This document shows positions 1,389-59,849 of a stretch of 64,000 nucleotides of DNA, in pieces. This stretch comes from a virus. The DNA lies in IMG/VR virus record IMGVR_UViG_3300009509_000006, positions 1 through 64,000 of that record; one strand, given 5' to 3'. The position numbers were made by a program, and so were the translations under genes. The stretch's first letter is position 1; every line of letters starts with the position of its first letter. Below the pieces are notes generated by a model. The model saw only the letters and a program-made list of their open reading frames with translations, was not told where the DNA came from and ran no database searches.

Positions 1389-1706
1389 TCAGGATACGAC
1401 GGCCTTCTTGACACCGTTGCCGAGAGCGGCGTCCTTTCCAGTCTTCGCACCGACGATCCTACGCTTGAGCGGGTCGGCGTTTGTCTTGTAGTGGAAGACC
1501 ATGCTCTTCGTCACGCCCGTGCCCTTCAGAACGGGGGTACCGCCCTTCATGCCCGCGACCACGAAGCGCTTGCCGCCGACACCGGCCTTGCTTTGGCGCG
1601 CGAAGCTCAGGAACACCGATTGGCCCTTCTTGGCGCTCTTGAGAGTAGCCAGCACAGGGTCCTTACCCTCAAGCAACAGGCGCCCTTCCTGGATCATATT
1701 CCTCAT
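1389..1706 (-). CDS. Basic (Lys-rich) putative internal head protein with leader MRNMIQEGRLLLE
   Basis: GAGG RBS; leader shared with genes starting at 4848, 58637, 58902 and 59849. Confidence 0.75.
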   Translation of the reverse strand: MRNMIQEGRLLLEGKDPVLATLKSAKKGQSVFLSFARQSKAGVGGKRFVVAGMKGGTPVLKGTGVTKSMVFHYKTNADPLKRRIVGAKTGKDAALGNGVKKAVVS

Positions 1707-1720
1707 CGCGTCCTCTCGTA

Positions 1721-3280
1721 TCAGAAAGCAGGGAAAGCGTTCGAGACGGCAATGAAGTCCATCTCGTCCATCGCCGCTTGCAGAGCTCTCATGGCGTCAC
1801 GGACGCTCTTGGCGCTTTTGGCTTTCACCAAGGCTTTCCGCCACCCCTTCAAGCCACCATCGCTCGGGGCGGATTGGAGCAGGTCTTGGTCGGCGTCATG
1901 GAGGAGGCGACCAATCATGTTCGAGATACCGATGAAGTCCATTGCGTCCATCGCGTTCTGGATGTGCTTGAGCGCCACCCCCACCTTCACCCGCAACAGC
2001 GACGCGGCCTTGAGCTCACTCCAGAATTCCTTCTCGGCTCCAGGGGCAGGCTCTCCGAAGTCGCCACCCGGAGCTTCGATCAAGGCGCGAGCACGCTCGA
2101 GCAGGTCGGAACTCTCCTTCTTGACTTTGTGCTTCGACTTGCCCGTCCATGGCGTTCCGATCTGACCGGTCCTCTTCTTGCCCTTCCTGGGCTTCCTCTT
2201 CTGGCGGTAGTGCCGCAGGTAGCCGGCGACGGCCTCGGGGTCACGGACGTCCTTGCGGGCCTTGAGCGCCTTGAGCGCCTTCGTGCCCTTGAGCTGTTCG
2301 GTCTCGGCGAGTGGGGAGCCACTCGCATCGGTGTCTTCGGCGAGAGCCTGATCGATGGCATTCGAAATCACCATGAAGTCCATCGAATCCATCGCGCGGC
2401 CGAGGGCCTGCATTGCGGCCCGCACGCTCGTTGCCTTCTTGGCCTGGAGCAGGTTCTTGCGCCAGCTCTTCCGCTCGCCCTCGCCGGGCTCGCGCTGGAG
2501 CTCCGCCGCGGAGGACTGCAGCATGTGGCCGATCGCGTTCGAGACGGCGATGAAATCCATCTCGTCCATCGCGTTCTGGATGTGCTTCAGCGTCTCGGCG
2601 ACATTCGGGCGCGTGATGGCGGCCTTCTGGATGTGCGCCTTGAAGCGCTTTGCCGCTCCAGGGTCGGGCTCGTACATCTCGAGGGCCACGTTCTCGAGGT
2701 CTTGTGCGACGGCGTCGGCGTAGAGCTTCGCGAGCTCCTCGGGGCCCTCGACATGGTCGAGCGACCACTTGCCCGGGGACCAGGACAGGCCGCCGCCTCC
2801 CCCTCCACCCATCGTTGTCGTGCCGCCGCCCACCGTCTGGTAGACCTTCTCCTTCTCTTGCTCCTGCCCGAGCGTCGGTGTCACGTGCCACTTCGACTTG
2901 GCCTGGGCCTTCTCCTTCTCTTTGGCCTTCTTCTGCGCCCAGGTCATTGTCTGAGCCTTGGCCTGCTGCTTTTGCTTGGCCTTCTGGGCCTCTTTGGCAG
3001 CCTTCTCGACCTTCTCACGGGGGGCGATCGCCACCCACTTCACCGAACCCTTCTGGATCTGGAACTTGCCACCGAGGCCCTTGAGGAAGTTCTCGAGCAT
3101 CTTCCTGGAGCCCTTGATCGAATGGTAGATCTTGACGACCACGAAATTCTTCGGGTCGGTCCGGTGGGGCCTGTAGTGGATCCCCTTCTTGCCATTGACG
3201 TAGTTGACGATGAAGTCCTGGCCTTCCTTCGGGATCGTGGCCTCTCGGATGATCTTCGCCACGGCGGGATGCACGGGCAT
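1721..3280 (-). CDS. Multi-module putative internal head protein with four AMDxMDFxxxSN repeats
   Basis: AGGAGG RBS; 519 aa; duplicated two-repeat helical module; internal leader-like SDLLERARALIE. Confidence 0.8.
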   Translation of the reverse strand: MPVHPAVAKIIREATIPKEGQDFIVNYVNGKKGIHYRPHRTDPKNFVVVKIYHSIKGSRKMLENFLKGLGGKFQIQKGSVKWVAIAPREKVEKAAKEAQKAKQKQQAKAQTMTWAQKKAKEKEKAQAKSKWHVTPTLGQEQEKEKVYQTVGGGTTTMGGGGGGGLSWSPGKWSLDHVEGPEELAKLYADAVAQDLENVALEMYEPDPGAAKRFKAHIQKAAITRPNVAETLKHIQNAMDEMDFIAVSNAIGHMLQSSAAELQREPGEGERKSWRKNLLQAKKATSVRAAMQALGRAMDSMDFMVISNAIDQALAEDTDASGSPLAETEQLKGTKALKALKARKDVRDPEAVAGYLRHYRQKRKPRKGKKRTGQIGTPWTGKSKHKVKKESSDLLERARALIEAPGGDFGEPAPGAEKEFWSELKAASLLRVKVGVALKHIQNAMDAMDFIGISNMIGRLLHDADQDLLQSAPSDGGLKGWRKALVKAKSAKSVRDAMRALQAAMDEMDFIAVSNAFPAF

Positions 3281-3290
3281 GGTGCCTCCT

Positions 3291-3389
3291 TCAGAATCTG
3301 CGTGGGCGCCTGAAGTAGTACACGAGCGCAGCTGTGCATACGAGGCCCCAGACGAGCAGGAAGAAGTAGAATGTCGTTGTCTCGCTCAT
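3291..3389 (-). CDS. 32-aa single-pass membrane peptide (MSETTTFYFFLLVWGLVCTAALVYYFRRPRRF)
   Basis: Hydrophobic helix followed by an Arg-rich stop-transfer tail; fills the gap after the transglycosylase. Confidence 0.55.
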   Translation of the reverse strand: MSETTTFYFFLLVWGLVCTAALVYYFRRPRRF

Positions 3390-3426
3390 CCGGGCCAGGA
3401 TAGCAGCATCGCTTTCGTGTCGTCCA

Positions 3427-4341
3427 CTACTGGCCGCCCTCTCCGTGCACCTCGAGGAAGTCGAGCTCGCGTTGCAGCTCTTCGATCGACCACTCGCGCA
3501 GAGCTGCCTCCTCGTATGGCACCTCGTTCCGGTCGTAGGCCTCCATGAGATCCTTGCGCAGAGACCGTCGTTTCTTGCGCGCCGCGTGCTTTGCCAATGC
3601 CTTGGCCTTGCCATCGAAGTAGACATAGCGCTCCTTGCCGACAGCCTTGAGGTCTTCGGGCGAGATGTACGGATCGCGGAGCGAGGCCTTCACCTTGAGC
3701 ATCTTGCGCTGCGCGAAGCCGCACTGACCCTTGTAGCTGTTCCTGGCCTTCGGCCCACACTTCCAGTGCGCCATCCAGTCGTGCAGCTGCCCGGCGCACT
3801 TCTCGTGGCTCTCGATCGCGTGCTTCACCTGGAACGCGGCGACCTGGGTGTTGACCCAGGGGTCGTACAGATCGTCCGGCTCCCAGTCGGTACCGTAGAA
3901 CGTGCGGGCCGAGTAGATCCAGTCGGGCTTCTGCTGGAACAGCCCTCTTTCGCCACCGGAACCTGTGGCATCGGCCTCGTAGGTGATCGGCCTGTCGTAT
4001 TCCGGCATCTTTGCGAACGTGAAGTCGAACCTGTAGCTGCTGTGTTCCGAGATCAGCAGCGCGCCTAGATCGTAGGGGTCAATGTCGATCGCCACCGCGG
4101 CCTTGTACGTGTACCACCCGAACTCCGGGGGCACTCCCGCGCGAGCGAGTCGAGATGTAAACAACGCCCCGTCAAGCAGCCCCACGAGCGGGTTGTGCCC
4201 GCTCCGAACGAGAAGCGCCCGAACCACGTCCGCTGAGGGGCCACCCGCGCCACCCGAGCTCGCCCTGTCCTCGGCGAGAACAGAGCCCGAGCAAAGGAGC
4301 AGGAGCGCGACGAAACACAGTGATAGTGCTGACTTCCTCAT
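3427..4341 (-). CDS. Lytic transglycosylase (SLT/lysozyme-like) with signal peptide; candidate endolysin
   Basis: GGGAGG RBS; signal peptide MRKSALSLCFVALLLLCSGSVLA; SLT-like motifs LLISEHSS, GERGLFQ, DLYDPWVN. Confidence 0.75.
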   Translation of the reverse strand: MRKSALSLCFVALLLLCSGSVLAEDRASSGGAGGPSADVVRALLVRSGHNPLVGLLDGALFTSRLARAGVPPEFGWYTYKAAVAIDIDPYDLGALLISEHSSYRFDFTFAKMPEYDRPITYEADATGSGGERGLFQQKPDWIYSARTFYGTDWEPDDLYDPWVNTQVAAFQVKHAIESHEKCAGQLHDWMAHWKCGPKARNSYKGQCGFAQRKMLKVKASLRDPYISPEDLKAVGKERYVYFDGKAKALAKHAARKKRRSLRKDLMEAYDRNEVPYEEAALREWSIEELQRELDFLEVHGEGGQ

Positions 4342-4387
4342 TCGAGCCTCCCTGTCACGTTATCGGCTATCACGAGCCTGGTGCCCG

Positions 4388-4416
4388 GATATATCAGAAG
4401 TGACAGAGAGGGCCAA
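4388..4416 (-). promoter_or_regulatory. Candidate sigma70-type promoter upstream of the transglycosylase
   Basis: TTGGCC-17 nt-TATATC with TG extension, in an intergenic gap. Confidence 0.35.
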
Positions 4417-4422
4417 GCGGGA

Positions 4423-4848
4423 TCAGCGTTCGCGCCAGGCTTTGTCGACAAGCTCCGGGATCTTCTTCATCCGGATCTTGTTCACGGCGTCTTTGAGCCC
4501 TGCATTCGACAGCAGTGCGAGCAAATGTCGCATCACCTCGGGGGCGTTGTACTTGTTGAACGCCGGGGTCTTCGGTTTGCGCTCCAGGAGTGCTCTTGCC
4601 GCGGCCATGGGATCCACGCTCTCGGCTTTCGGAGGCTGCCCGGGCTCTTTCTCGTTCGCTGGTTTTCCGTCCTTGTCTTGCGGGGGCGGGGGTGGCGGGG
4701 TCTCGCCTTTGGGGATCTTGTAGCGCTTTCTGAGCTTCGGGACGATACTCCGGATCACGTCGATTGGCGTCTCGGGCACTTTGGGCTGCTGCTCCGCGTC
4801 TTGCTCCCTGGCGAGCAGCAGTTGTGCCTCATCGATCAGGTCTCGCAT
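4423..4848 (-). CDS. Putative internal head protein with leader MRDLIDEAQLLLA
   Basis: GGAGG RBS; shared leader; Pro/Lys-rich. Confidence 0.75.
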   Translation of the reverse strand: MRDLIDEAQLLLAREQDAEQQPKVPETPIDVIRSIVPKLRKRYKIPKGETPPPPPPQDKDGKPANEKEPGQPPKAESVDPMAAARALLERKPKTPAFNKYNAPEVMRHLLALLSNAGLKDAVNKIRMKKIPELVDKAWRER

Positions 4849-4879
4849 GATGCCTCCGGGGCGATGTCACGCGAGAAGT

Positions 4880-5428
4880 CTACTCTGTGGGCGTGTCGAA
4901 GTGTAGAGGGCATCTCGGCGAGTAGATCTCGCCGTTTCCAGGGACGAGATCCTCCTCGAAGTGCTTCTTGCGAGCCGTGTAGACGGCTGTGGCGCCGCAC
5001 ACGTCGCAGTAGGCCTCCCGGGCCACCGTGATCTGGTCGGCGTGGCACAAGAGCTCCGGGATGCCGTCCCACGGCGACCCGTTCCACAGGAGCGTCAGCG
5101 CGGCGAGCACAATCTCCTTGCCCTTGCGCCTGAGCATCAGCGCCACGTCGAGCACCCCGGGCAGCATCTGGGCTTCTTCGACGAGGAACAGGTCGTAGTC
5201 GTCCTGGATCTCGAGCATCTGAGCTGCGTGCTGAATCCGCATCGCCGGCCACGCACGCCCCGTGCGGCTCTTGAGCGCAGCCTCCTCGTCTCTTGTGTCG
5301 ATCCTGGGGCGGAAGGCCCCGATACGAGCTGGGTTCCCTGACAGTGCGCTCTCAGCTCGCCCGATCAGATAGTCCGTCTTCCCGCTGAACATCGGGCCCA
5401 CTACGACGTGAATCTTCCCCGCTTTCAC
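4880..5428 (-). CDS. tdk: Thymidine kinase
   Basis: GPMFSGKT P-loop, (D/E)EAQ motif, CDVC zinc site, YSPRC C-terminus; start reassigned to GTG 5428 after GGAGG. Confidence 0.95.
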   Translation of the reverse strand: MKAGKIHVVVGPMFSGKTDYLIGRAESALSGNPARIGAFRPRIDTRDEEAALKSRTGRAWPAMRIQHAAQMLEIQDDYDLFLVEEAQMLPGVLDVALMLRRKGKEIVLAALTLLWNGSPWDGIPELLCHADQITVAREAYCDVCGATAVYTARKKHFEEDLVPGNGEIYSPRCPLHFDTPTE

Positions 5429-5570
5429 TGCGACCTCCGAAGAACACTCTCGATACAACCGAGGCCGAATAGTACAGGGATTCCCCGATCCCAGCGAGCA
5501 TCGCGGGGAGGGCCAGGGCCGCCTCAAGCAAGAACCGGAGAAGACTCTCGAGTACCCCGTAGACGCCCAT
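5352..5570 (-). CDS. Small hydrophobic hypothetical protein (MGVYGVLESLLRFLLEAALALPAML…)
   Basis: TGATG coupling to the SEC-C gene, GAGG RBS; overlaps the tdk start by about 77 nt. Confidence 0.4.
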   Translation of the reverse strand: MGVYGVLESLLRFLLEAALALPAMLAGIGESLYYSASVVSRVFFGGRSESGEDSRRSGPDVQREDGLSDRAS

Positions 5571-6076
5571 CACCGTGACCTCTGTTGTTGCTCGAGGCGC
5601 ACCAGGAGAGGCTCGGTCACAAGATGGTGAGGGAATTCCGCGCAGAACCCCTCCCACTTGTCATCGGGAATCGCGCCGATCCGGATCTCGCTTGCGTCGA
5701 ACCCGCCAGCGTTGGCCCATCGCTGCGCGTGGGCATAGCGCTCGAACACGAGCACGGTCTCGCCGTCGAGCGTGAGCACACCTGTATCCTTCCCTCTCAG
5801 AACAAAGCGCGTCCTGTTGCCCTCGTAGTGGTTTCGGACCTCCTTCATGCCCGAGACGCCGCGCACCCTGTGCCCACAGCAGTGCTTCATCTTGTGGCCA
5901 CTGCCGCAGGGACACTTCGCGTTGCGCCCGACCTTCGCGCCCGCGACGCGCTTCGTCCGGGATTTCTTCGGCGGGTCCTTCGGCGCGTCCTCAACGGCCT
6001 TCTTGAACCGCGCGGCCAATCCCGAACGATCCGGCCCCTCCATCTCGTCCAAGGCTTCGTTCAACTGCTCGTCCAT
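5570..6076 (-). CDS. SEC-C (SecA C-terminal zinc-binding motif) protein
   Basis: KVGRNAKCPCGSGHKMKHCCG; GGAGG RBS before ATG 6076. Confidence 0.9.
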   Translation of the reverse strand: MDEQLNEALDEMEGPDRSGLAARFKKAVEDAPKDPPKKSRTKRVAGAKVGRNAKCPCGSGHKMKHCCGHRVRGVSGMKEVRNHYEGNRTRFVLRGKDTGVLTLDGETVLVFERYAHAQRWANAGGFDASEIRIGAIPDDKWEGFCAEFPHHLVTEPLLVRLEQQQRSR

Positions 6077-6100
6077 TGCGGCCACCTCCATGCGCAAGCG

Positions 6101-6129
6101 ATGATATACAGCGTGTACACTGATCGCAA
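6101..6129 (-). promoter_or_regulatory. Sigma70-type promoter for the SEC-C/tdk unit
   Basis: TTGCGA-17 nt-TATCAT immediately downstream of a terminator. Confidence 0.6.
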
Positions 6130-6131
6130 GG

Positions 6132-6170
6132 ACAAAACGAAAGCCCCTGTTGGAGAGGCAGGGGCTTTCG
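6132..6170 (-). terminator. Intrinsic terminator
   Basis: 12-bp perfect stem CGAAAGCCCCTG/CAGGGGCTTTCG, 9-nt loop, followed by TTTTGT. Confidence 0.85.
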
Positions 6171-6210
6171 AATACCGTCGGCTGGGGGGCCTTCGGTGGA
6201 GGATGCTTTC
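6132..6210 (-). ncRNA. Candidate ~75-80 nt small RNA
   Basis: Bounded by a promoter match (6215-6243) and the terminator; no ORF. Confidence 0.4.
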
Positions 6211-6214
6211 GTAC

Positions 6215-6256: not shown

Positions 6257-7153
6257 CTACAGCTTGGCGAACGCCGACGGATCCTCCAGTGTCTTGTGGC
6301 CCTTCGTGAACTTGAGCCAGTCTTTCCACTTGAAGCCGAAGACGGTGCAATCGTAGTCGTAGAGGAACTCGATGCGCTTGTAGCCCAAGGCCTTGATCTT
6401 CGGGATCAGCTGCGCCTTGGCCTTTTTCTTGTGAGGCCCACGGAAGCGGAGGCGGATGTTGTCGCCGTACTTTGTCTTCGCGGCGTAGACCGACGGCAGG
6501 ATCGTTTCCAGGGTGCCCTTTGGCTTGGGCACGTCAGGGCCGGTCTCCGTCGCCTTCCCTGGTTTCCCTGCCAACTCGCGACCAATGTCAGCAAACCTGG
6601 ACTCGGCAATCGCCTCGTTTCGTCGACGCACAAGGCCCCACAGCTTGCCGAGGAAGCCCTTGTCCTCCTTGTCGCTTTCTGGGCACGTGGCGAGCTTCTT
6701 GATCAACTCGACGAGCTTCGACGTGATGCTCTTGAGCAGCCCTTCGTCAAGTACGACGTCGAGAAGCGCCTCATGGATCTGGACGAAATCCGTGGTGTCG
6801 GTGATCTCGGTCATCTCGACCGCGCGGACCCTGGCTTTCTCCTCGAGGGCGTTGCACTGCTGCGCAAGCGCCTGGAGCGCGTCGGCGAGCGCCGTCACTC
6901 GAGCTCGACTGTACGAGTGCTCCAGGGTGCGGAGAGTGGCAGTCTCGATGCCTTCGAGGCCGAGGTTGCGCACGGCGTTGTCGAGACGGAAGCGGAGTTG
7001 TGCCTCGAGCGGCCAGGGCTCTCGAGCAGCCTCGAGCAGATCGGCGAGCGGGTCTCTACCAGAGCGATGCTCGGCGAGAATCGCGTGTGGGCTTCGGCGG
7101 GGGAGCAGGGTCAGACGCTCGAAGAGACTTGAGACCTTCTGGGAGCGTTTCAT
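6257..7153 (-). CDS. Hypothetical protein, possibly head-associated (helical N-half, basic C-terminal domain)
   Basis: GGAGG RBS; 298 aa; L/I-x-E junctions (ILAE, DLLE, AIAE). Confidence 0.75.
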   Translation of the reverse strand: MKRSQKVSSLFERLTLLPRRSPHAILAEHRSGRDPLADLLEAAREPWPLEAQLRFRLDNAVRNLGLEGIETATLRTLEHSYSRARVTALADALQALAQQCNALEEKARVRAVEMTEITDTTDFVQIHEALLDVVLDEGLLKSITSKLVELIKKLATCPESDKEDKGFLGKLWGLVRRRNEAIAESRFADIGRELAGKPGKATETGPDVPKPKGTLETILPSVYAAKTKYGDNIRLRFRGPHKKKAKAQLIPKIKALGYKRIEFLYDYDCTVFGFKWKDWLKFTKGHKTLEDPSAFAKL

Positions 7154-7561: not shown

Positions 7562-10312
7562 TCACTGGGGCACCGCTTGCTCCAGCGCGCGCCTGTACTG
7601 CCGCATCGAGTCACCGAAAGCCTCGGGCTGCTGGAAAGGGATCTGTTCGGCGTGCGCGTCGCCGCTCTCAATGTCTGCCGCGAATACGCCGCCCGACACC
7701 ATGCGACCTTGGGCTCGCAGGTCCACCAGATGGGCAGCTTTTCCGGCAATCTTACAGAGCGCTTCGTCCAGGCTGTCGGTCGGGTCACTGCGGAAGACGA
7801 TCCGGACCTGCTGGTCACGGTCGTCTGCCATGCCCGAGATGGGATCGGTGATGTTGAAGTCCTCGAACCGGGGCCCCAGGGCTTTCGCGAGCTCGACAGC
7901 CTCCTCCGGCCAGGTGTCGACGACGAGGTACGCGGCGAAAGGGCCGTCCGGGGCCGTGTTTGTCACCACTTCCTGGTGCGCCTCGAGGATGACATCGGGC
8001 GTATCGCTCGAGAAGAAGCGCATCTCATCGAGGCATGCCTGCATTGGGTCTGTTGCCTCGCCGTACTTCGGGAATTTCGGCACGCGGAACGCCGCGCCCA
8101 TGTGGGCGGGCTTGTCTCGGAGAGTAGCGTGCAGCTGTGCTCGTTGCGCCATCGCCTGGAGCGTCGCCTCCACGTTCTGGATCGAACCAGAAGTCCTGAA
8201 GAAAGGCGGCTCCTCGCCCTTACCCTCTGGGGTGAACGAAACATGGGCCTGAAGCGAGGCGGGACGTCCTCCTCGCGGAGACCAGGCCACAATCGTGTAG
8301 GTTCCGAACGGGGCTTCGAACGTCAAGACGCCCGGGAATGTCTTCTTCGGCTTTCCTGGCGCACTGTACGTGCTCTTCCGCGTCACCCTCCATTTCGTGT
8401 GGTCACCGAGGCCAGTGGGTGCCTTGGCCTCCTCGAGGCCCTCGGCCTTCGGCTTCTTGCGGTCGATGCCAGCCTCGTACTCGCCGACCTTGGTCGCGTG
8501 CTCTTCCTCGCCTGCGTGACGAGCTGCGGCCTCGCGGCCCTTCGCCGTGAGTTCTTTCGTCCCAGCCTTGTAGTAGCCCGCCTTCTGGCCAGCCGCCGTG
8601 CAGATCGCGAATGCGGACTCGGTGCTCTTGCCCTTGCCGGTGAGCTTTGCAACACAGTGCTGCATGAAGGCGTCGGCTTCCTCGAGGGGCTCTCCGGTAC
8701 CCAGGAAGACATCGAAGGCCTCGATCATGAGGTCGAAGGCCTTGTGGTCGACCGAGTCCCACATCTCGCGGTCCTTGAGACGCTCGAGGAACAGCCGCAC
8801 GCGCTTCATGAAGCCCAGGATGTTCTTGTAGAACACGTTGCCCACGGCCTTGTGCAGCTCTTTGCCCGCTCGCACGGCGTCCTCGAGCTCTTCCTTCGTG
8901 CATTCGCCCTTCTGCGCCACCTCGCGGAGGATGCGCCTCGCGGAAGCTCCGGTCTCGAGCATGTCCCGGACAGACTGGTGCAGAGAGGGCCCGTACTGCT
9001 TGATCACCTCGATGAGCTCGGAGTCGCTCATACTCTTGATCCCTGGAGTACTGTCGACAGTCTTGGGGCCCGGAAGCCACTTCGGGGGGAATCCCCACGA
9101 CTGCACCTGGCCGCGGAAGATCGGGAAGCTCTTCTGGAAGGCCTGCGCGTAGACCTTGTCGCGCACCTTGGCCAGGCGATCCAGAGCGTTGCCGAGACTG
9201 ATCAGGCCTTTGCGAATGCCCTTCCAGTGCGCACCTGAGAGCTTTTCCGCCTCCTCGATCACCTTGAAGGACGCCTCGAGCAGGTTGTCGCCCTGCTCCA
9301 TGGCCTTCTTCCAGTATTGCGAGATCTCGAGCAGCTTCTGGGTGTTGACCTGGATCAGCGCGGCCTCGACGTGAGCGGGCTTGTCCTCCCACCACAGCCT
9401 GGGACCGACAGCAGCATCGGTCCCTTCGTTTGCGGCCTGGTGAGCCTTGACTGCATCGAAGTAGGCCTTCTTGCGCTGGTCATGGTTCGGCTGCTTGAGC
9501 TTCTCGATGCCCTTCGCCTTGCCCTTCTCGGTGAGCTTCATGCCCGAGCTGTAGTAGCCGTGCTTCTGCCCCATCTTGCGGCACACGAAGCTGGCCTTCG
9601 ACAGCGGAGCACCTTTCTCGAGCATCGCGCCGGCGCAGTGCACGAACCACGAGTCCACCGAGCGGAACGGCTGAAAGCCCTCCTGCATCTCGTCCGGGGG
9701 CTCGGGCTCTTCCGCCTCGATGGCGGTCGTGTAGTCGTCACCGAAGCCCATGAGGCGCAGGACATCGGGGTGCACCTGCACTGGTGAAGGACGGGTCAGC
9801 CTGCTCGAAGCGCGCTCGATATCGGAGGGCGTCGTCTCGAACTCGGCCCGGAGCATCTCTTCGGCGAGCTTCTCGACCTGGCCCCAGGACAGCCGCCGGC
9901 CGTTCGTGCCCTGCGACGTGTCCACCCAGGAGAACACGGCCTTGGGATTGCCGATGTCCCTCTCGTCGAGGTCAACGAAACGGTGCGTCCGCACAACTCT
10001 GCCCCAGCCGTCACAATAGCCGGCCTCGACAACGTAGCCCGTGTGAGGATGGTGGCTTGCGCGCATGTAGAAGCGTGGCGGGACACGGTCGCCCTGGAGC
10101 ATTCGCTGATGGAGCTCCAGGCGTAGGCGAGAGGTGCCCTCCTGCGTAATCTGCGGGTGCACCTTGACGGCGCGTCCCGTGACCTGCTTGAGAAACTCGG
10201 CGATGGCGGGGGCCGCCTGCCGAAGAATGCCCTTGATCGCGTCGAGACGGTCTTCCGGTCGGGGCTCGCTCTCCGCCAGGGCGCGGAACTCGTCCAGAGC
10301 GTTGTTGAACAT
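7562..10312 (-). CDS. Large multi-module putative internal head (poly)protein, ~916 aa
   Basis: Start reassigned to ATG 10312 (AGGAG RBS; MFNNALDEFRALAE); two copies of an HC-x-KG-S/AF-x-C-GQK-GYY-LTxKG module. Confidence 0.8.
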   Translation of the reverse strand: MFNNALDEFRALAESEPRPEDRLDAIKGILRQAAPAIAEFLKQVTGRAVKVHPQITQEGTSRLRLELHQRMLQGDRVPPRFYMRASHHPHTGYVVEAGYCDGWGRVVRTHRFVDLDERDIGNPKAVFSWVDTSQGTNGRRLSWGQVEKLAEEMLRAEFETTPSDIERASSRLTRPSPVQVHPDVLRLMGFGDDYTTAIEAEEPEPPDEMQEGFQPFRSVDSWFVHCAGAMLEKGAPLSKASFVCRKMGQKHGYYSSGMKLTEKGKAKGIEKLKQPNHDQRKKAYFDAVKAHQAANEGTDAAVGPRLWWEDKPAHVEAALIQVNTQKLLEISQYWKKAMEQGDNLLEASFKVIEEAEKLSGAHWKGIRKGLISLGNALDRLAKVRDKVYAQAFQKSFPIFRGQVQSWGFPPKWLPGPKTVDSTPGIKSMSDSELIEVIKQYGPSLHQSVRDMLETGASARRILREVAQKGECTKEELEDAVRAGKELHKAVGNVFYKNILGFMKRVRLFLERLKDREMWDSVDHKAFDLMIEAFDVFLGTGEPLEEADAFMQHCVAKLTGKGKSTESAFAICTAAGQKAGYYKAGTKELTAKGREAAARHAGEEEHATKVGEYEAGIDRKKPKAEGLEEAKAPTGLGDHTKWRVTRKSTYSAPGKPKKTFPGVLTFEAPFGTYTIVAWSPRGGRPASLQAHVSFTPEGKGEEPPFFRTSGSIQNVEATLQAMAQRAQLHATLRDKPAHMGAAFRVPKFPKYGEATDPMQACLDEMRFFSSDTPDVILEAHQEVVTNTAPDGPFAAYLVVDTWPEEAVELAKALGPRFEDFNITDPISGMADDRDQQVRIVFRSDPTDSLDEALCKIAGKAAHLVDLRAQGRMVSGGVFAADIESGDAHAEQIPFQQPEAFGDSMRQYRRALEQAVPQ

Positions 10313-10325: not shown

Positions 10326-10718
10326 TCAGAAGCGAATATGGATATGGATGTTCGGCATGCCGACGTGTCCGAAAGTGCTCGCCGAAGTCGTCGAAGTGCC
10401 CCAACCCGGGCCCACCATGACGAACTGCTGCGGGACAACGCGCCGTGGCGGCACCGGCTTCGGCACTTCCATGGCGAGTATAGCCTCGACCGTTTCCCGG
10501 ATCACCTTGAACTCCTCTTCTTTCGCCAAGTCATTCGGGTGCAGGTCGGGGTGCGTCTCACGCGCGACGCGCTTGAACTCTCGCTTGACGTACTTCTTCA
10601 GTGCCTCGAGAGCTCGGACGCGCCCATCGTAGGGGCCGTTCTTGATCGCCACGAGGGCAGCGGTCCCAATGCGTAGCCGCTGCATGGCGAATGATACTTG
10701 CTCGGGCGAGAGTGCCAT
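10326..10718 (-). CDS. J-domain (DnaJ-like) co-chaperone
   Basis: FKRVARETHPDLHPND…EEEFKVIRE, HPD motif in J-domain helical context. Confidence 0.85.
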   Translation of the reverse strand: MALSPEQVSFAMQRLRIGTAALVAIKNGPYDGRVRALEALKKYVKREFKRVARETHPDLHPNDLAKEEEFKVIRETVEAILAMEVPKPVPPRRVVPQQFVMVGPGWGTSTTSASTFGHVGMPNIHIHIRF

Positions 10719-11719
10719 CAGAACCTTCGTGTCTGCGGCTCCATCCGGGTGACGTAGCCGCGATTGTAGTCGTCGCGATCGAGAATGACGAGGTGATACC
10801 AGCTACCTTTGATCACATCGAGGGGTTTGACACGGGCCTTCTTGAGGGGTCCGAGGATCTCGTTGACGTCTCGCTTGTTCGAGAGCTTGATCACGATCTT
10901 GCTCTCGTCGACGTTGCCCTCTGGAGTCTTGAAGTCGTCGGTCTTCATGTCGAGATCGTAGACGAGCTCGGACAGCGCGACCTGGACCCGCTTCATTTTC
11001 ATCCGGCGCTTGAACTGGCCGCGCTGCGGGTTCTGCTTGAGCCACTTCTGGGCTTTCTGGAGCACCTTCATGTCGCGGTAGTTGCCCGTCTTCTGCATCA
11101 GGGCAATGGCTTCCTCGAAGGGCAGGAGCAAGACCTTCGACGTCTCGAAGTCCGTCTTCTTGAGCGCTCCAGTGGTCTGCACCATGACGTAGTAGTACGT
11201 CACGCTCATCGTACCCTCGAACTTGCCTAGGTTGGACCCTGGCAAGACCTTGGCGACGACGCCAGCCTCCTCCTCGACCTCACGGATCGCGGTCTCTTTC
11301 TTCCCCTCACCTTCGTCGACCCGGCCTTTCGGGAGCGTCCAGGCCTTGCCTCCGTACTTGCCCGAGGGCTGCCGGATGTAGACGTAGTTGATCTCGTCGG
11401 GGTGCAGGGAGGGGATGACGACACCCCCTGCCGAAACCCACTTTTCCGGCTTCTTGGGTTTGCCGTGCGGGGGCTCCTTGGGGCTCATGGGCAAGTCCGA
11501 AACGCTCGGAACATCGTCCCAGAACGACGAGCCCGCGGCGAACTTCGAGGGCGCTTTCTTCTTCGGCGGCTTCGGCGGCTTCTGCTTCTGCCCGGGCGCC
11601 CACGGCTCGTCGACGCCACTCACATTCTTGGGATCTTTCCAGAATGGGAGCCAGGCTTTGGAGTCGGCCTCGAGCAGTTTGGCAATGCCCCGGATTGCCT
11701 TGCGTGCAGTTCCCATCAC
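10718..11719 (-). CDS. Nudix hydrolase (Ap4A/Ap6A hydrolase-like) with N-terminal leader and extra C-terminal domain
   Basis: SAGGVV…WTLPKGRVDEGEGKKETAIREVEEEAGV, a complete Nudix box. Confidence 0.92.
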   Translation of the reverse strand: MMGTARKAIRGIAKLLEADSKAWLPFWKDPKNVSGVDEPWAPGQKQKPPKPPKKKAPSKFAAGSSFWDDVPSVSDLPMSPKEPPHGKPKKPEKWVSAGGVVIPSLHPDEINYVYIRQPSGKYGGKAWTLPKGRVDEGEGKKETAIREVEEEAGVVAKVLPGSNLGKFEGTMSVTYYYVMVQTTGALKKTDFETSKVLLLPFEEAIALMQKTGNYRDMKVLQKAQKWLKQNPQRGQFKRRMKMKRVQVALSELVYDLDMKTDDFKTPEGNVDESKIVIKLSNKRDVNEILGPLKKARVKPLDVIKGSWYHLVILDRDDYNRGYVTRMEPQTRRF

Positions 11720-12757: not shown

Positions 12758-13419
12758 TTGCTCGGCCTCTTCTCTTTCTCTCGTTCCAGTTTGCGTCGTC
12801 GCAACAAGTCGGCAACGAGGGCATTCGGATCAACGTGGTAGTCCCACGGAGGAGGGTGCCGACCGAAGGCCACGTTGCCTATGCCAGGATAGGGCATAGC
12901 ATGCCCTCCTGAAAAGATCCCGTTGGGACCTACCGCTACAGGGTGCGCCATGAACTCGTTCAAGAGGTCAGCTTTCGTGCGCAAGTCGACCACCTCGGAT
13001 TGCGGCGGCGAGGTGTTCGGGCCCGTGAAGCGAGCCGGCCCACCTGGAGCTCCCCCAGTTCGGGCCGAGGGCGGCGGCGGGCCATTCTGCAACCACTCGA
13101 TCGCCATCTTGAGCAGTTGCATGTCCTCTGGTGTGAGGTCGTAGTACGGGCGCGGCTCATGCTCCAGGGCTCGGTGAAGGATGGCGTCGGGGCCGTCTGA
13201 TGGGTACTCGAGGATCATGTCGCGAGCCCGAGCGAAGACGCGCTCGGCAGTCGCGGTGCGAAACGGGAACAGGGGCGCTTCGGGAATCGCCCCGGCGAAC
13301 TTGGGCGGGACGCCTGGGTGAAGTCCAGACACCGCACCACCCCCGAGGAAGATGGACCGGTTGAAGTTCCAGTCTTCGACCAGTCGGCGCATTCGCCTGG
13401 CAACCTGGCGCACTTTCAT
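12703..13419 (-). CDS. Hypothetical Pro/Gly-rich protein, possibly head-associated (MKVRQVARRMRRLVE leader)
   Basis: ATGA coupling to the upstream gene; 238 aa. Confidence 0.7.
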   Translation of the reverse strand: MKVRQVARRMRRLVEDWNFNRSIFLGGGAVSGLHPGVPPKFAGAIPEAPLFPFRTATAERVFARARDMILEYPSDGPDAILHRALEHEPRPYYDLTPEDMQLLKMAIEWLQNGPPPPSARTGGAPGGPARFTGPNTSPPQSEVVDLRTKADLLNEFMAHPVAVGPNGIFSGGHAMPYPGIGNVAFGRHPPPWDYHVDPNALVADLLRRRKLEREKEKRPSKWHKLRKALGFPVNPTSP

Positions 13420-14192: not shown

Positions 14193-14500
14193 TACTTCTC
14201 CTCGGCCTCTTTTTCGGCCTTGCGGAAAGCCCGAAGGCGTTTCATGTAGGCGGATCGCTTCTCGGGGTCAATGCGGTGGGTCCGCTTGCGAGTCTTCCAC
14301 ACCAAGTGGTCGCAGCGCATCTCGCCCGAACGCACCATGCGACAGCGCCATCGCCGGCGCCTGCGGAAGGTCTTGCCGGCGGGGCCGGGGCCAAGCTCGT
14401 CTTTGTTGCGGAAGGGGTTGTGGGCGCTCTGCTCCAGAAGAGCCCGAAGCCTCTCGAGGTATGCGCTCCAGGTTGTGCAAGCCCGTGCGCTGCCGCTCAC
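14192..14500 (-). CDS. Basic hypothetical protein, possibly head-associated (YLERLRALLEQ)
   Basis: GTGA and TAATG couplings on both sides; Arg-rich. Confidence 0.65.
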   Translation of the reverse strand: MSGSARACTTWSAYLERLRALLEQSAHNPFRNKDELGPGPAGKTFRRRRRWRCRMVRSGEMRCDHLVWKTRKRTHRIDPEKRSAYMKRLRAFRKAEKEAEEK

Positions 14501-47716: not shown

Positions 47717-47893
47717 CTATCGCCGCCTGCGTTTCTTGCGGGCTCGCTTCAAGCGCATGAACACGGACATGTCGTCGGGGTCGAGGATCCACGAGTCGGG
47801 CACACTTCGCAGAGGCGGGAAAGTGGCCTTTGTGAAGTAGCCCACGTTGGCGGTCGTGGTCTGCTCGCTCATGCGCCAGCGTCTTCGTGCCAC
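47717..47893 (-). CDS. 58-aa basic peptide containing a copy of the capsid protein N-arm (absent from the ORF track)
   Basis: MARRRWRMSEQTTTANVGYFTKATFPPLRSVPDSWILDPDDMSVFMRLKRARKKRRRR*; GTG 1 nt after the tube gene stop (alternative ATG 47872). Confidence 0.75.
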   Translation of the reverse strand: MARRRWRMSEQTTTANVGYFTKATFPPLRSVPDSWILDPDDMSVFMRLKRARKKRRRR

Positions 47894-53934: not shown

Positions 53935-54336
53935 TTACGCGCCCGCGTTCACCTGGGATCGAGCAATCGACAGGGCACGCTCGCCGAGACCGCAAGTGGC
54001 CGCCCGAGCGATCCAGATCGCCAGGCCCTTCTGGTCGTTCGGGATTTCGAAGAGCAAAGCCTCCTCGATCATCTGGTCAATGGCCGTGCCGACGCACTGC
54101 ATGGCTCCGTCCACAGTGAGCCCGTACTCGACGCCGATCGCATCGACGATGTCCTCGATGTAGCGATCGAAGTCGTGCGTGACGCCAGTGATGTTCGTGG
54201 CCTTGCCGGTACCAGGCAGACTGCCGTGTCGATCGGTTGCGGCTTCGCCGAGCGCCTCCTTGGAGGAGTCGAACTCCATGTCGCCAATGATCTTGTCACG
54301 GATGCCTTCCAGAACGGCGTTGAATTCCGAATTCAT
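53935..54336 (-). CDS. Hypothetical acidic protein
   Basis: GGAG RBS; 133 aa. Confidence 0.75.
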   Translation of the reverse strand: MNSEFNAVLEGIRDKIIGDMEFDSSKEALGEAATDRHGSLPGTGKATNITGVTHDFDRYIEDIVDAIGVEYGLTVDGAMQCVGTAIDQMIEEALLFEIPNDQKGLAIWIARAATCGLGERALSIARSQVNAGA

Positions 54337-55606: not shown

Positions 55607-56226
55607 GGACAGGGGCCCTCCGGCGAATCGATGATTTTCTGCTCGGGCGTGAAGGTCGTATTCCGCCTGATGTCAAAAAGGAACCCTACAAACGCCGGTC
55701 CGTCAAACAAGTGCCCGTCGTCGGCAACCTGCGTGACATCGAAGAAGTAGCCCTCGCCACCGGAAGCACCATCGAAGTACGGGATCCGCCAGAACTCGAG
55801 GATGTCTCCTTCGGAGGGCGCCGGACATCCCACACGCTCGAATTCACGCCTGGGGATCCACGCCTCCGTGTACCACTCGATCCGAAACCCGGTCTCCTCG
55901 GCGGTAGCGGATCCGGGCTCGTGCCCCACGAAGGCAAACATCTTGAAAGGCCCGTTCCAAGCTCGGTTGATGGGCTCGTTGTAGACGGGATCGACATCGG
56001 TGTTGTCTGCGTCGAAGCTGTAGTAGCGGATCTCGACACCGCAGATCCGGATGTGCTCGTTGGCCCACAGGTCGAAGAGGGGGAGCTCGACGTCGGTCAG
56101 GCGCAGAGTGAACGTGGCCAGTTGTTCGCCGTGGACTTCACCGACAACGTGCTTCTCTTCCTCTTCGTAGCCACCGAGGGATTGAAGGTGCCAGCGCATA
56201 TCGGGGACGTCGTGCTGCCTCGGCAT
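55603..56226 (-). CDS. Neck/head-closure protein (gp14-like)
   Basis: EHIRICGVEIRYY…VDPVYNE…PSEGDILEF; follows the gp13-like gene. Confidence 0.75.
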   Translation of the reverse strand: MPRQHDVPDMRWHLQSLGGYEEEEKHVVGEVHGEQLATFTLRLTDVELPLFDLWANEHIRICGVEIRYYSFDADNTDVDPVYNEPINRAWNGPFKMFAFVGHEPGSATAEETGFRIEWYTEAWIPRREFERVGCPAPSEGDILEFWRIPYFDGASGGEGYFFDVTQVADDGHLFDGPAFVGFLFDIRRNTTFTPEQKIIDSPEGPCP

Positions 56227-56229
56227 GAC

Positions 56230-56979
56230 TCACCCCGTGATGAAGGGCATTGGCATGCCCGCCTTGATGATGTCCTCGTCGAGCGTCCGCATCTCTTCCT
56301 GCCCTTCCGAGAGAATGTCGCGGCCATCGAGCTGGCGCTCGCCTTGTGCTCCAGGGAAACCGGCGTACTTGGATCGTATCCGGCCCACGAGGATCTTCGC
56401 GTTGGCGAGCATGTGGCGCCTCACCAGCTGGTGGTCGAAGTGCCGGAGCTCAGTGAACGCGATCGAGGCGCTGCTGTAGACGAGCATCATCTGGCCTGAG
56501 GTGCGCGGCGCCGGGCTCAGGATCACCTTGCGCGTGTACTCGTCCCAAATCCAGTTTGCATCCGCCGACATCACCCGCTTCGCCATCTCTGTGTACTGGA
56601 TTGCCTGCGCCAGGCTCGAGTACAGCCCCGCCGACTCGGGGGCTGCGAAGACGTCGTAGGGGATCTTCTCGTCTGCCAGGATGTAGGGCGAGAACACCAT
56701 CGTGAAGTCGTGCGGTGCCGAAGGCAAGAGCACCTCTACAACATCGTCGCAGTCGTCCGGCACATCGTACTCGACAACATTGGTAGCCACATCGATCAGT
56801 CGGTATCGCGCCACGCCCTTCTTCGAGATGAACCAGTCCTTCGCGTCCTCGACGAGGTCATCGAGGTGCGCGGGGTGTAGCTCCACTTTGAGGATTGGAG
56901 CGCCAAGACGACGGAGCACCCACTTCTGGAGTTGCTCTTCGTCCATGACAATCTGGCGAGAGCGGGCCGAATAGGTCAT
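56230..56979 (-). CDS. Neck/head-tail adaptor (gp13-like)
   Basis: WVLRRLGAPILKVEL…LANAKILVGRIRSKY…PG…LDGRDILSEG…MPFITG. Confidence 0.88.
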   Translation of the reverse strand: MTYSARSRQIVMDEEQLQKWVLRRLGAPILKVELHPAHLDDLVEDAKDWFISKKGVARYRLIDVATNVVEYDVPDDCDDVVEVLLPSAPHDFTMVFSPYILADEKIPYDVFAAPESAGLYSSLAQAIQYTEMAKRVMSADANWIWDEYTRKVILSPAPRTSGQMMLVYSSASIAFTELRHFDHQLVRRHMLANAKILVGRIRSKYAGFPGAQGERQLDGRDILSEGQEEMRTLDEDIIKAGMPMPFITG

Positions 56980-57371
56980 GCGTCAATGGCCTCAAGCTGC
57001 TCAAGGATCGCAGCCTTCACGGTCTTGCGGTCCTTGTTCTCTTCCTCGTACTCGAGAACCTCTCGAAGCTCCTCCGCCGTGAACTCGTACTGCTCGACGG
57101 TCTCGATGACCTCGGTCGCACGCAGGCTGTCGTAGTCCTCGATGGGGAATTCGGTCTCGACGGAGGGGTCCAGGTCATCGGGATCCGGACATCCTTCTTC
57201 GGGAGCGTCGGCCTCGGCCACCTTCGTGTCGTCGGGCTCCTGCTTTGGCGCCTCCACATCCTCGAACAGGTGGGGCATGATCTTCGCCACTTCCTCGGAG
57301 ACGAGGTCTCCGTATCGATACGCCCTACCACGATGGTAGAGTATCGAACCCTTTGTCTTCAGCCTTCTCAC
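56976..57371 (-). CDS. Acidic protein with a small C-terminal helical domain
   Basis: PIEDYDSL…ELREVLEYEEENKDRKTV; GGAGG RBS. Confidence 0.75.
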   Translation of the reverse strand: MRRLKTKGSILYHRGRAYRYGDLVSEEVAKIMPHLFEDVEAPKQEPDDTKVAEADAPEEGCPDPDDLDPSVETEFPIEDYDSLRATEVIETVEQYEFTAEELREVLEYEEENKDRKTVKAAILEQLEAIDA

Positions 57372-57380
57372 GGGGACCTC

Positions 57381-58028
57381 CTACCCCTCGAGCACAGGGC
57401 CCGAGCTCAAAATTTCCGAAGCGACGAGTTCGAGCGGGTCCACCGTGTTCCGCTTCCCGCTCGCTCGCTCCTCGTAGATATCATCGTCTTCGCCCGGCAT
57501 CTCTTCGGGACCCTTGTACGGAGAGCGAATGACAGGGTCGTTGCGGTAGCCACCGCGTTCCCCCTCAAGGAGGGGGCCACGACGCAGGATCTCTTCGGCA
57601 AGCGCGTCTTCGACATCAGGGTCAAACAGGCCACCCTCCGGATCCGTAGGTGGCGCCCCTCGGACCGGACGCGGCTCACGGGCAGGAGCATGCACTGCTC
57701 CCTGCGATTCGTGGATCTCACGGCGCAGCACCCGGATGTCGGCACCAAGCTGGTCCACACGACCCGAGAGGTCCTCGACCAACTGGATCAGGTGCACGAG
57801 CAGTTTTGCGCTCGGTGGGATCGCAGGCCGCTCGGTATCCTCTCGGGGGTCTCGGTCGCGCCCCAGGTCTTTCGCTGGGACCGTTCGAGCCGGCGACCTG
57901 TACAGGGATTGCCTGGGCGCTCGGGAACGCTCCAGGGCCTCCTCGTCTTGTTCGCGCATGGGGCTGATACCCATCCCTCGCAATTGCGAGAGTACGTTCT
58001 GAACTCGCTCGTCGCCTCGCCTCGGCAT
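57381..58028 (-). CDS. Hypothetical largely disordered protein with central coiled coil
   Basis: AGGAGG RBS; 215 aa. Confidence 0.7.
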   Translation of the reverse strand: MPRRGDERVQNVLSQLRGMGISPMREQDEEALERSRAPRQSLYRSPARTVPAKDLGRDRDPREDTERPAIPPSAKLLVHLIQLVEDLSGRVDQLGADIRVLRREIHESQGAVHAPAREPRPVRGAPPTDPEGGLFDPDVEDALAEEILRRGPLLEGERGGYRNDPVIRSPYKGPEEMPGEDDDIYEERASGKRNTVDPLELVASEILSSGPVLEG

Positions 58029-58112
58029 CTCTTCCTCCTTCGTCTCCTTAGTCTGGGCCGAAACGACCCAGCCCGTCCAGTATAGAGACGAGACACAGGC
58101 GAAGAAAGGCGC

Positions 58113-58637
58113 CTACTTCCCAGGAAACTCCTTCTTGAGCTTCGATTCCACAGCCTTGTTCCACGACTTGAGCTTCGGGCCCTCCCACCAGCGCGACGCC
58201 GCGGCGCCGACAGCCGCAGCGCCTCCCCAGAAGGGGTCGTACCGCCCGTACAGCTGCTTCGTGTCCGAGATCTTTGCGCTGGCGTGCCCAACGAGGTGTC
58301 GAGCGTTGACGAGCTCCGGTGGAAGGATCATGAGGAGGCCTTCCTTCCTGAGCATCTCAACAGTGAAGTCCGTACCCTTGAGCATTCCTCGGGCGTCGTC
58401 CATCGCGCTTTTGCCAATGTCGAATCCCTGCTCGCGCGTCAGGTACTTGCGCCCGTAGGCAACGCCCTTCTTCCACTGGGCCTCGGCAAACTTCGATCCG
58501 GACAAGGATTTGCCGAATTTGTCCTTGTAGCCCATGAAGGGCTTCTTCCACTCTTCGTGTGGGACAGGAGGATCGGGAAATTGCGCCTCAAGCTTGCCCT
58601 CGAGCAGGTCCCGGCCCTCTTGGATGAAACGTCGCAC
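58113..58637 (-). CDS. Putative internal head protein with leader MRRFIQEGRDLLE
   Basis: Shared leader; Lys/Trp-rich. Confidence 0.8.
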   Translation of the reverse strand: MRRFIQEGRDLLEGKLEAQFPDPPVPHEEWKKPFMGYKDKFGKSLSGSKFAEAQWKKGVAYGRKYLTREQGFDIGKSAMDDARGMLKGTDFTVEMLRKEGLLMILPPELVNARHLVGHASAKISDTKQLYGRYDPFWGGAAAVGAAASRWWEGPKLKSWNKAVESKLKKEFPGK

Positions 58638-58638
58638 A

Positions 58639-58902
58639 TCAGCCCCCTACTTCCTTGAGCTTCGCGGCCACTTCGGGGTCCTTGCCCCAGCGCTTCCTGA
58701 CAGCCGCCTTCACGGCAGGGTAGTCACTGGAGTCACCACGCTTCGCCTGGATGTAGGCGAGAGCGCGGATCGCGTGCTCCTGGTCATGGATCGGCCACCC
58801 CTTGCGCTCGGGGAAGACGAATGACGACTTTTTCATGCGCTCGCGCTTCCCTGGCGTGATCTCGTCGAGCAGCGCACGTCCTTCTTCGATCAGGTCTCGC
58901 AT
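58639..58902 (-). CDS. Putative internal head protein with leader MRDLIEEGRALLDE and DUF6582-like domain
   Basis: Start ATG 58902 overlaps the upstream TGA; SSFVFPERKGWPIHDQEHAIRALAY. Confidence 0.8.
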   Translation of the reverse strand: MRDLIEEGRALLDEITPGKRERMKKSSFVFPERKGWPIHDQEHAIRALAYIQAKRGDSSDYPAVKAAVRKRWGKDPEVAAKLKEVGG

Positions 58903-59849
58903 CACACAACTCCCATGTCCTGGAGCACAGTGACCACACCCTTCTTGATGCGGTTCTGGCTCTTTGGCGTGAGGTGTTTCTTGATCTCGCGCCATGTGTT
59001 GGATTGCCCGAGCAGAAACGTCACCGCCTTGCTCTGCGGCCACGCTACGAGTTTCGCTCTGTGCGCGCCAACCAGGTCCCGAACCTGCGCGGAAATCTCC
59101 TGCATGTAGGCCTTCACCTCTTCGGGCGAGTTGTAGTAGCGAGCCTGGCGCTCCTTCGCCTTGGCCTTCGCCTGAGCTCGCTGCTCTTTCGGACTGTCCG
59201 GCGGATGCAATCCCACCTTCGTGAGGGTCATCTTCAGCCGCTCAGTTGAGTCGCCGATCCCGAGCTCTTTTCGCTTCCGGGCGATCAGTCGGTGCGAGAC
59301 CTCGCCATAGCCAGCTGCCTTCAAAATCTGCGAGATCTGCCTATCCGAGAAGGGATGAACAGGGTTCTCCTGCTGGAGCAGCGCTACGATGTGACGCTCC
59401 AGGCTCTTCTTTCGCAGCACGTCCTTGGCGTGGGTGATCTCGTGCATGAGGGCGTACTTCATGGCGCCCTGAATGCTCGACATCTCGGTCCCACGCAAGA
59501 GCGGCACGAGCTCGCCGGCACCGAGATTTCCGTTCAGCATCATGTTGATGATTCGCTCTTTCGGCGCGTAGACGGCACCCAGAAAGAGCCCGCGCACGCC
59601 GGGCCTCTTGACGCTGATCACCGAGACCGGAATCTCGCGCTTCTTGCCCTTGACATCGGACACAGTGATCTTCTCGGTGGCCCACAGCTTGTCGCCGATC
59701 GGCTTGGTCGGTTGCACCCTCGCCATGCTCTGGAGCGCGGGCACGAACTGGCCCATGAGCCGCTTGACGAGCATCGTAACGACTTGGTCAGGCAGCTTGA
59801 TCGGGCGGGCTTCGAGGAGCTTGTGCCCTTCCGTGATCAGGTCTCGCAT
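58902..59849 (-). CDS. Putative internal head protein: leader MRDLITEGHKLLE, HEXXH zincin-like domain, inserted sigma-54 C-terminal DNA-binding-like domain
   Basis: LMHEITH…YYNSPEEVKAY; ENPVHPFSDRQISQILKAAGYGEVSHRLIARKRKELGIGDSTERLK. Confidence 0.8.
   Translation of the reverse strand: MRDLITEGHKLLEARPIKLPDQVVTMLVKRLMGQFVPALQSMARVQPTKPIGDKLWATEKITVSDVKGKKREIPVSVISVKRPGVRGLFLGAVYAPKERIINMMLNGNLGAGELVPLLRGTEMSSIQGAMKYALMHEITHAKDVLRKKSLERHIVALLQQENPVHPFSDRQISQILKAAGYGEVSHRLIARKRKELGIGDSTERLKMTLTKVGLHPPDSPKEQRAQAKAKAKERQARYYNSPEEVKAYMQEISAQVRDLVGAHRAKLVAWPQSKAVTFLLGQSNTWREIKKHLTPKSQNRIKKGVVTVLQDMGVV

Follow-up and report, generated by a model that had tools for sequence, protein, structure and literature searches.

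What would lead five proteins that resemble one another in nothing else to begin with the same short peptide? The question is raised by a stretch of DNA of 64,000 nucleotides (hereafter the window), which forms the first 64 kb of the 98,058-bp IMG/VR record IMGVR_UViG_3300009509_000006 and in which five genes, whose products we call cargos A to E, share an N-terminal leader. The record has a GC content of 62% and an estimated completeness of about 57% (CheckV), nearly all genes of the window lie on the minus strand, and the gene calls are our own, made from GC at third codon positions (GC3) and start-codon heuristics. On the evidence of its genes, we place this phage in an uncultured, high-GC, deeply diverged and distantly T4-like branch of the T4 superfamily. 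An earlier note on this DNA had proposed that the leader loads unrelated proteins into the prohead. The analyses described here make it probable that the leader, 13 residues long, targets proteins to the capsid as a propeptide, in the way that the internal proteins (IPs) of T4 are targeted by what is known as the capsid-targeting sequence (CTS).

The shared leader and its five cargo proteins

The leader follows the strict motif M-R-x-[LMF]-I-x-E-[GA]-x-x-L-L, and a search of the whole record in six frames with the pattern M/V-R-x-[LMFIV]-I-x-E-x3-L-L yielded five matches against 0.005 expected from codon shuffles, with no sixth copy in the remainder of the record. All five matches fall at start codons on the minus strand (59849, 58902, 58637, 4848 and 1706, for cargos A to E, respectively), exactly where the earlier note had placed them. 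The start codon is ATG in four of these genes and GTG at 58637, and each start either has a Shine-Dalgarno-like motif ahead of it or is coupled to the preceding stop codon. Using a hidden Markov model (HMM) of the leader, the members score between 26 and 32 bits, while the next-best of the 396 N-termini tested reaches 5.6 bits and random 30-mers reach up to 7.0 bits. The leader is 13 to 14 residues long, with I-x-E at residues 5-7 in all five members and L-x-E at residues 11-14 in four of them, the latter being followed by G, A or I.

Conservation of this kind could in principle reside in the nucleic acid, the leader being a recombination scar or a translation-initiation cassette that acts at the DNA or mRNA level and encodes a peptide without function. 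The genes of A, B and D do begin with an identical stretch of 15 nucleotides, ATGCGAGACCTGATC, which points to recent cassette exchange among them, and such exchange happens in T4, whose ipII and ipIII genes, according to the T4 record, carry one and the same 30-nt cassette for MKTYQEFIAE. Cargos C and E, however, retain the peptide with other codons, differing at five of the seven conserved positions (Arg is written CGA or AGG, Glu GAA or GAG, Gly GGG, GGA or GGC, and Leu CTC, CTG, TTG or CTT), and because the conserved residues are encoded by different codons we conclude that selection acts on the peptide. Moreover, five aligned sequences of the A family, at only 19-67% identity, keep I5, G8, L11, L12 and E13 invariant together with the junction R15-P16-I17, and no conservation was found in the sequence upstream of the five leader genes. 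We therefore give very little credence to an explanation at the level of the nucleic acid.

Beyond the leader the five proteins are unrelated, as the earlier note had maintained, since pairwise comparison of their bodies after residue 15 revealed no significant similarity. What the bodies have in common is their chemistry. All five are basic, with isoelectric points (pI) of 9.7-11.3 and Lys contents of 10-14%, compared with proteome medians of 5.8 and 4.4%; among the small proteins of the proteome only 5% have at least 10% Lys and only 11% have a pI of at least 9.7. The richness in Lys noticed earlier for most cargo bodies thus extends to every one of them. Their lengths vary from 87 to 315 residues. 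The leader itself is moderately amphipathic, its hydrophobic moment exceeding that of shuffled leaders in three of the five members, and it is followed in all five by a Pro-containing stretch.

Cargo A (58902-59849, minus strand, 315 aa) carries the leader MRDLITEGHKLLE/A, encoded at 59811-59849 (here and below a slash marks the candidate cut), followed by the linker ARPIKLP. Its body contains an invariant HExxH...D motif, kept in all five A-family members aligned, and then an inserted sigma-54 RpoN-type DNA-binding domain at residues ~145-205 (Pfam Sigma54_DBD, 2.6e-8, above the cut-off; 38% identity to 2o8k with a root-mean-square deviation of 2.5 Å). This insert is restricted to the direct orthologues of A, being missing from the A-like paralogues in two relatives (G001 and G002). 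The label of metallopeptidase/sigma-54 chimera given in the earlier note was therefore right in its second half; the first half rests only on the HExxH...D motif, and fold searches with Foldseek against the PDB and with VIA-align returned only the RpoN/helix-turn-helix insert and generic helical matches with Z below 8, with no zincin fold among them. In the AlphaFold2 model of A (mean predicted local distance difference test, pLDDT, 79.8) residues 2-13 of the leader form a helix of pLDDT below 50 that is detached from the confidently modelled body.

Cargo B (58639-58902, minus strand, 87 aa; leader MRDLIEEGRALLDE/I) has an ATG that overlaps the stop codon of A by one nucleotide (TGATG), so that its translation is coupled to that of A. 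Its DUF6582-like nature, already suspected from the sequence, is borne out by a match to PHROG 16160 (5e-8), and the Pfam and PHROG matches both begin at residue 14. An exhaustive search for B recovered 205 representative clusters, the alignments starting mostly from residues 13-15, and many stand-alone homologues begin directly with the domain and have no prefix. Because the domain begins where the leader stops and because unprefixed homologues exist, the leader must be an add-on. Some other stand-alone homologues bear short prefixes of their own (MRELLERLEG in P0021, MRQLLERL in P0043, MRELIEAL in P0048, MRELLEKL in P0069 and MRMSALLEA in P0004), which resemble CTS-type leaders and include an L-x-E site. 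A scan with P0021 gave no match, one with P0069 recovered relatives only in fused form or without a prefix, and none with T4-type head genes, and no cultured phage gave a tblastn match.

The remaining three cargos have less to compare with. Cargo C (58113-58637, minus strand, 174 aa), which starts with GTG and bears the leader (M)RRFIQEGRDLLE/G, and cargo E (1389-1706, minus strand, 105 aa), with the leader MRNMIQEGRLLLE/G and a body of pI 11.3, are both ORFans that found only themselves among 5.8 billion clusters; a search of the ESM Atlas gave no usable lead for either, and when A, C and E were queried in word-indexed searches for homologues, only the proteins themselves or members of their own clade were returned. 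The gene of E follows 14 nt behind that of a 519-aa protein. Cargo D (4423-4848, minus strand, 141 aa), encoded 31 nt behind a thymidine kinase gene, begins with MRDLIDEAQLLLA, in which I-D-E occupies residues 5-7, and continues with a Pro-rich linker. A leader-like segment also occurs inside D (MAAARALLE/RKPK, residues 84-96, window positions 4560-4617; 5.5 bits with the HMM) and is accompanied by an in-frame GTG at 4617 and ATG at 4608. D may have arisen by fusion of two modules that each bear a leader, or its translation may start internally.

The earlier note had extended the family to a number of looser versions of the leader, and these proved to be indistinguishable from background: their scores range from -0.4 to 3.7 bits, with E-values of 2 or more over the 396 N-termini, well within what random 30-mers attain. 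We accordingly do not count as members the candidates at 10312 (-0.4 bits), at the start of a Nudix protein (1.0 bits), at 13419 (3.7 bits, at Met10 rather than at residue 1) and at 14500 (2.5 bits, residues 19-23), the internal SDLLERARALIE (3.2 bits) and the RITDLISEIKGL of the core gene (2.0 bits). A half-match outside the window, GRALLE/S at 87440, was discarded as well, as it belongs to a Cas4/RecB-like exonuclease whose domain match already spans the segment. Separately from the leader, the Nudix protein (10718-11716, minus strand) contains KLLE/A at residues 13-17 and a 298-aa protein (6257-7153, minus strand) contains DLLE/A at residues ~38-42, both of which could be protease sites; of the ten [LIMF]LE[GA] motifs that the proteome contains, six fall in the first 45 residues of a protein, an enrichment that is marginal beyond the leaders.

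The head module and its candidate cleavage sites

The genes of A, B and C stand directly behind the gene for the gp23-type capsid protein, as had been reported, and this gene closes a module in which the order portal-core-protease-capsid corresponds to the T4 order 20-67-68-21-22-23, with adaptor and tail sheath downstream. The module comprises a gp20-type portal (64882-66714, just outside the window; Portal_T4, 1.1e-60), a presumed prohead core protein (63235-63981, minus strand, 248 aa, with acidic ends and a basic centre) occupying the place that gp67/gp68 have in T4, next to the portal and ahead of the protease, a gp21-type S77 prohead protease (61467-63032, minus strand, 521 aa; Peptidase_S77 at residues ~40-185, 59-62 bits, above the cut-off) and the gp23-type major capsid protein (59939-61435, minus strand; Pfam Gp23, 6e-64). 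With 31% identity to T4 gp21, the protease retains the GEL[DN]HP and G[IV]SSRG blocks; here these read GELDHP and GISSRG and align with T4 gp21 residues 81-86 and 137-142, and His85 and Ser140 of T4 gp21 are presumably the catalytic residues. The enzyme is apparently intact. It is fused to a Glu/Arg-rich coiled-coil extension of 330 residues, an arrangement that recurs in all five relatives checked (G006-G010, with fused open reading frames (ORFs) of 525-639 aa), the extension measuring ~330-450 residues across the clade members checked. No separate gp22-like scaffold gene was recognised, and the extension probably takes the place of that scaffold. Sites of the form [LIM]-x-E are about four times as dense in the 248-aa protein (0.052) and about three times as dense in the protease protein (0.036) as in the proteome (0.012), and T4 gp22, gp67 and gp68 are likewise rich in them.

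The specificity expected of such an enzyme is known from T4, in which gp21 cuts after Glu in L/I-x-E and the IP propeptides, of 10-19 residues, direct their proteins to the core before being cleaved off (PMC9026906 sections 2.5-2.6; PMC9958956). Short N-termini that end in [LI]-x-E are found on T4 head-core proteins such as Alt (MELITE), gp67 (MEGLIE), gp24 (MAKINELLRE) and gp21 (MNEPQLLIE). In the capsid protein encoded here the propeptide has two sites, KWAPLLE/G (residues 27-34) and SMNE/E (~residue 65), the second lying just ahead of the mature N-arm. The sites KWAPLLE/G and [LM]-x-E/[ED]-T are conserved in 25 relatives with identity down to 38%, and KW.PLLEG is found also in T4 gp23 and in the Rhodothermus phage RM378.

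These observations bear on the possibility that the leader is an amphipathic helix that works after ordinary expression, in oligomerisation, in association with membrane or DNA or in binding a host factor, on proteins that are never packaged. The hydrophobic moments of three leaders agree with such a role, and so does the embedding of D and E in non-structural operons. It leaves unexplained, nevertheless, why three members belong to the operon of the capsid gene, why the same LLE/G recurs in the capsid propeptide and why, throughout the clade (see below), each independent family of leaders ends in an L-x-E protease consensus before a small residue; in addition, the three to four charged residues in 13 make the leader unlike a signal peptide. 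We regard a helix on unpackaged proteins as distinctly unlikely.

If the leader is instead a propeptide of the T4 type, the following sequence of events can be proposed. The leader-bearing proteins would be made alongside the head proteins, A to C by read-through from the capsid operon, and the amphipathic N-terminal helix, held on its flexible Pro-rich linker, would dock onto the prohead core. This core would consist of the coiled-coil extension of the protease, of the 248-aa acidic core protein or of both, assembling on the gp20 portal, and the gp23 shell would close around it. The gp21-type serine protease would then cut after the Glu of (L/I)-x-E, degrading the core, trimming the capsid protein and removing the leader after E13 or E14, and possibly after E7. 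The mature basic proteins would remain with the packaged DNA and might be ejected with it into the host, where they may act.

The spacing between the capsid gene and A may offer a means of setting the dosage of these proteins. The intergenic gap (59850-59938, minus strand) holds a GC-rich hairpin followed by UUUCUGUUU, and the hairpin appears in both the minimum free energy and the centroid folds. The z-score of the whole gap was not significant, and a scan for sigma-70 and terminator consensus sequences around A to C gave nothing useful and did not call the hairpin. The hairpin is likely a terminator or attenuator that sets the ratio of cargo to capsid expression, in which case A, B and C would be read-through products present at lower dosage than the capsid protein.

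A small ORF elsewhere in the window (47717-47893, minus strand) encodes what looks like a mini capsid-like peptide with an Arg/Lys run at its end. It matches capsid residues 57-93, which include the M-x-E site and the N-arm sequence NVGYFTK (E-value 1e-7; 79% identity at the nucleotide level over 47 nt), and then, with an E-value of 0.002, capsid residues 450-486; it may be what is left of a second capsid or vertex paralogue, or it may be a decoy.

Leader families in related phages

Is a leader of this kind peculiar to one genome? A search with the capsid protein retrieved 66 IMG/VR loci, and eight whole contigs were read and subjected to an unbiased search for shared N-termini. Different leaders head several genes in different relatives: ..LSE.[VI]E[RK]GR.LL.E/A and its relatives in six genes of G002/G001, MN..IN[KR]LLE/G[IV]RR..GE/A in five genes of G003, MKI[VLM]E[GD][LV]EL.P..F...P.L[ST]E/A, of up to ~30 residues, in six genes of G006, MNI.E.IR.AAGL.E/[AS] in three tandem genes of the complete genome G009 (99, 201 and 574 aa) and RFNTLLE/AI in three genes of L053. 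A scan of IMG/VR with the back-translated leader gave three matches, one of which, MRKLIGEADALLE/K at the start of a single gene of L092, comes from the same clade. When the six-frame search was repeated in the relatives ignoring start codons, all 27 motif matches lay 1-7 residues from a start codon. The families are otherwise different, and what they have in common is the N-terminal position and an ending in L-x-E before a small residue (A/S/G/T). Within each of them the bodies are unrelated, with the exception of the recurring A family.

That exception is informative about what the leader follows. The orthologue of A in G002, at 67% identity, carries not the leader of A but that of its own genome (MSISETIERGRELLDE/ARPI), with the junction E/ARPI conserved, and therefore the leader tracks the genome and not the cargo. 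A second type of leader is present in the window too: the gene at 53935-54336 (minus strand), for an acidic protein of 133 aa that begins MNSEFNAVLE/GIRDK, is the orthologue of a conserved acidic protein whose N-terminus heads the five genes in G003. Comparison across the clade thus suggests that two leader types coexist in this record, each native to one conserved family (A and the protein of 53935-54336, respectively) and each spread to ORFans in particular lineages.

A common leader on unrelated bodies is also the hallmark of systems in which a maturase recognises its substrates, and the leader could be what a dedicated chaperone or modifying enzyme recognises, as happens with the leaders of ribosomally synthesised and post-translationally modified peptides. 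No radical-SAM gene (PF04055) was detected, however, in the 98-kb record, which is ~57% complete, whereas the control search matched 14 of 14 genomes; no enzyme gene lies consistently beside the leader genes in the relatives inspected; and the head protease is the one enzyme whose specificity does match. We consider a modifying-enzyme tag very unlikely.

Both leader types of the record end in [LF]LE/[GA], the second reading LLEGI where the capsid protein has LLEG[IML]. This resemblance invites the suggestion, which we put forward tentatively and think rather doubtful, that the leaders imitate the capsid propeptide, an element like KW.PLLE/G being a core-docking and cleavage code shared by the T4 superfamily. 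Were this so, any protein that gained the element by recombination would become capsid cargo, sequence could reveal which proteins uncultured T4-like phages inject, and engineered loading could make use of the tag.

In G008 (L109-L113) the minus strand between 29.8 and 80.5 kb contains 11 copies of a conserved DNA element that starts with TTGAC, translates as MTTADLS.YKG and precedes different ORFs. The repeated element resembles an early promoter of the sigma-70 type rather than a peptide leader.

Relation to known systems and biological meaning

The closest parallel is provided by IPI, IPII, IPIII and Alt of T4. The head machinery (gp20, gp21 and gp23) is homologous, and in both cases a short N-terminal propeptide that ends in (L/I)-x-E is borne by unrelated small basic proteins (IPII and IPIII have 100 and 193 aa and pI values of 9.6 and 9.7, as read from the T4 record), encoded by dispersed genes, some of which start with an identical DNA cassette, and the cargo is hypervariable and includes ORFans. 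The internal proteins of T-even phages form a highly diverse set in which only the CTS is conserved (PMC3012670, citing Repoila et al. 1994), and the CTS has been suggested as an evolutionary mechanism to load various proteins (PMC9026906). In view of this literature and of the cassette of ipII and ipIII, the leader belongs to a kind already described. The prohead-loading tag proposed in the earlier note, which a gp21-type protease would remove, agrees well with the head synteny, the S77 enzyme, the (L/I)-x-E sites, the basic cargo and the relatives, while its presentation as a new system has to be given up (PMC3012670, PMC9026906).

The differences from T4 are nevertheless several. With 13-14 residues (up to ~30 in G006) the leader is longer, and it offers two candidate positions for cutting; the protease continues into a long coiled-coil where T4 has a separate gp22; there are two or more types of leader, each the native N-terminus of one conserved family; and cargo A includes an RpoN domain. 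Sequence comparison indicates that the leader is a functional analogue of the T4 CTS operating on homologous machinery, and not a homologous tag. This phage stands out by a tag that is longer than that of T4 and unrelated to it, by two types of tag whose donor families can be identified, by the protease-coiled-coil fusion and by an RpoN-bearing cargo.

Other systems are more distant. In the giant phages phiKZ, 201phi2-1 and SPN3US a diverged gp21-like protease processes many proteins inside the head, cutting behind the Glu of a short motif, and many of these proteins are ejected (PMC9026906 section 3.2; PMC5694885; PMC10052503). Their motif is S/A/G-x-E, however, and their propeptides are long and, in the text consulted, are not described as one short common N-terminal tag. 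The capsid and protease of the present phage, in contrast, match the T4 Pfam families directly. In phage P1 an N-terminal region of the Dar antirestriction proteins targets cargo into a myovirus head for injection; the head lineage of P1 is different, and its loading needs an ordered set of Dar/Hdf proteins. Encapsulins also use a short portable peptide to send unrelated cargo into a shell of HK97 fold, but they lack a portal, a tail and a maturation protease, and their peptides, as a rule C-terminal, stay in place. The portal, head-tail adaptor, tail sheath and S77 protease of this tailed phage do not fit an encapsulin-type system.

Several observations weigh against a capsid-targeting propeptide. 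Cargo D does not have L-x-E at residues 11-14, and D and E lie among nucleotide-metabolism genes instead of head genes, although the IP genes of T4 are dispersed as well. A scan of the window for the T4 late promoter TATAAATA found none. The leader shows no similarity to MKTYQEFIAE beyond Met1 and a general hydrophobic and acidic pattern, and three of the relatives (G005, G007 and G008) have no clear leader family at the threshold used. Finally, the phage is uncultured and is represented here by sequence alone, and with a record ~57% complete the census of the leader family is a partial one. Taking these points together with the evidence in its favour, we still hold a propeptide of the T4 IP kind to be the probable explanation.

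The mechanism would then not be new. Its significance would be that the T4 principle of one tag for many cargos holds also in a branch of the T4 superfamily that is uncultured, high in GC and deeply diverged, and in which the tag evolves per genome and the orthologous cargo keeps pace with it. In practical terms, the leader combined with the L-x-E rule nominates A to E, and ~30 proteins across the clade, as probably packaged in the virion and possibly injected. One of them bears a sigma-54 promoter-binding domain, and the nominated proteins are candidates for a role in host takeover or counter-defence.

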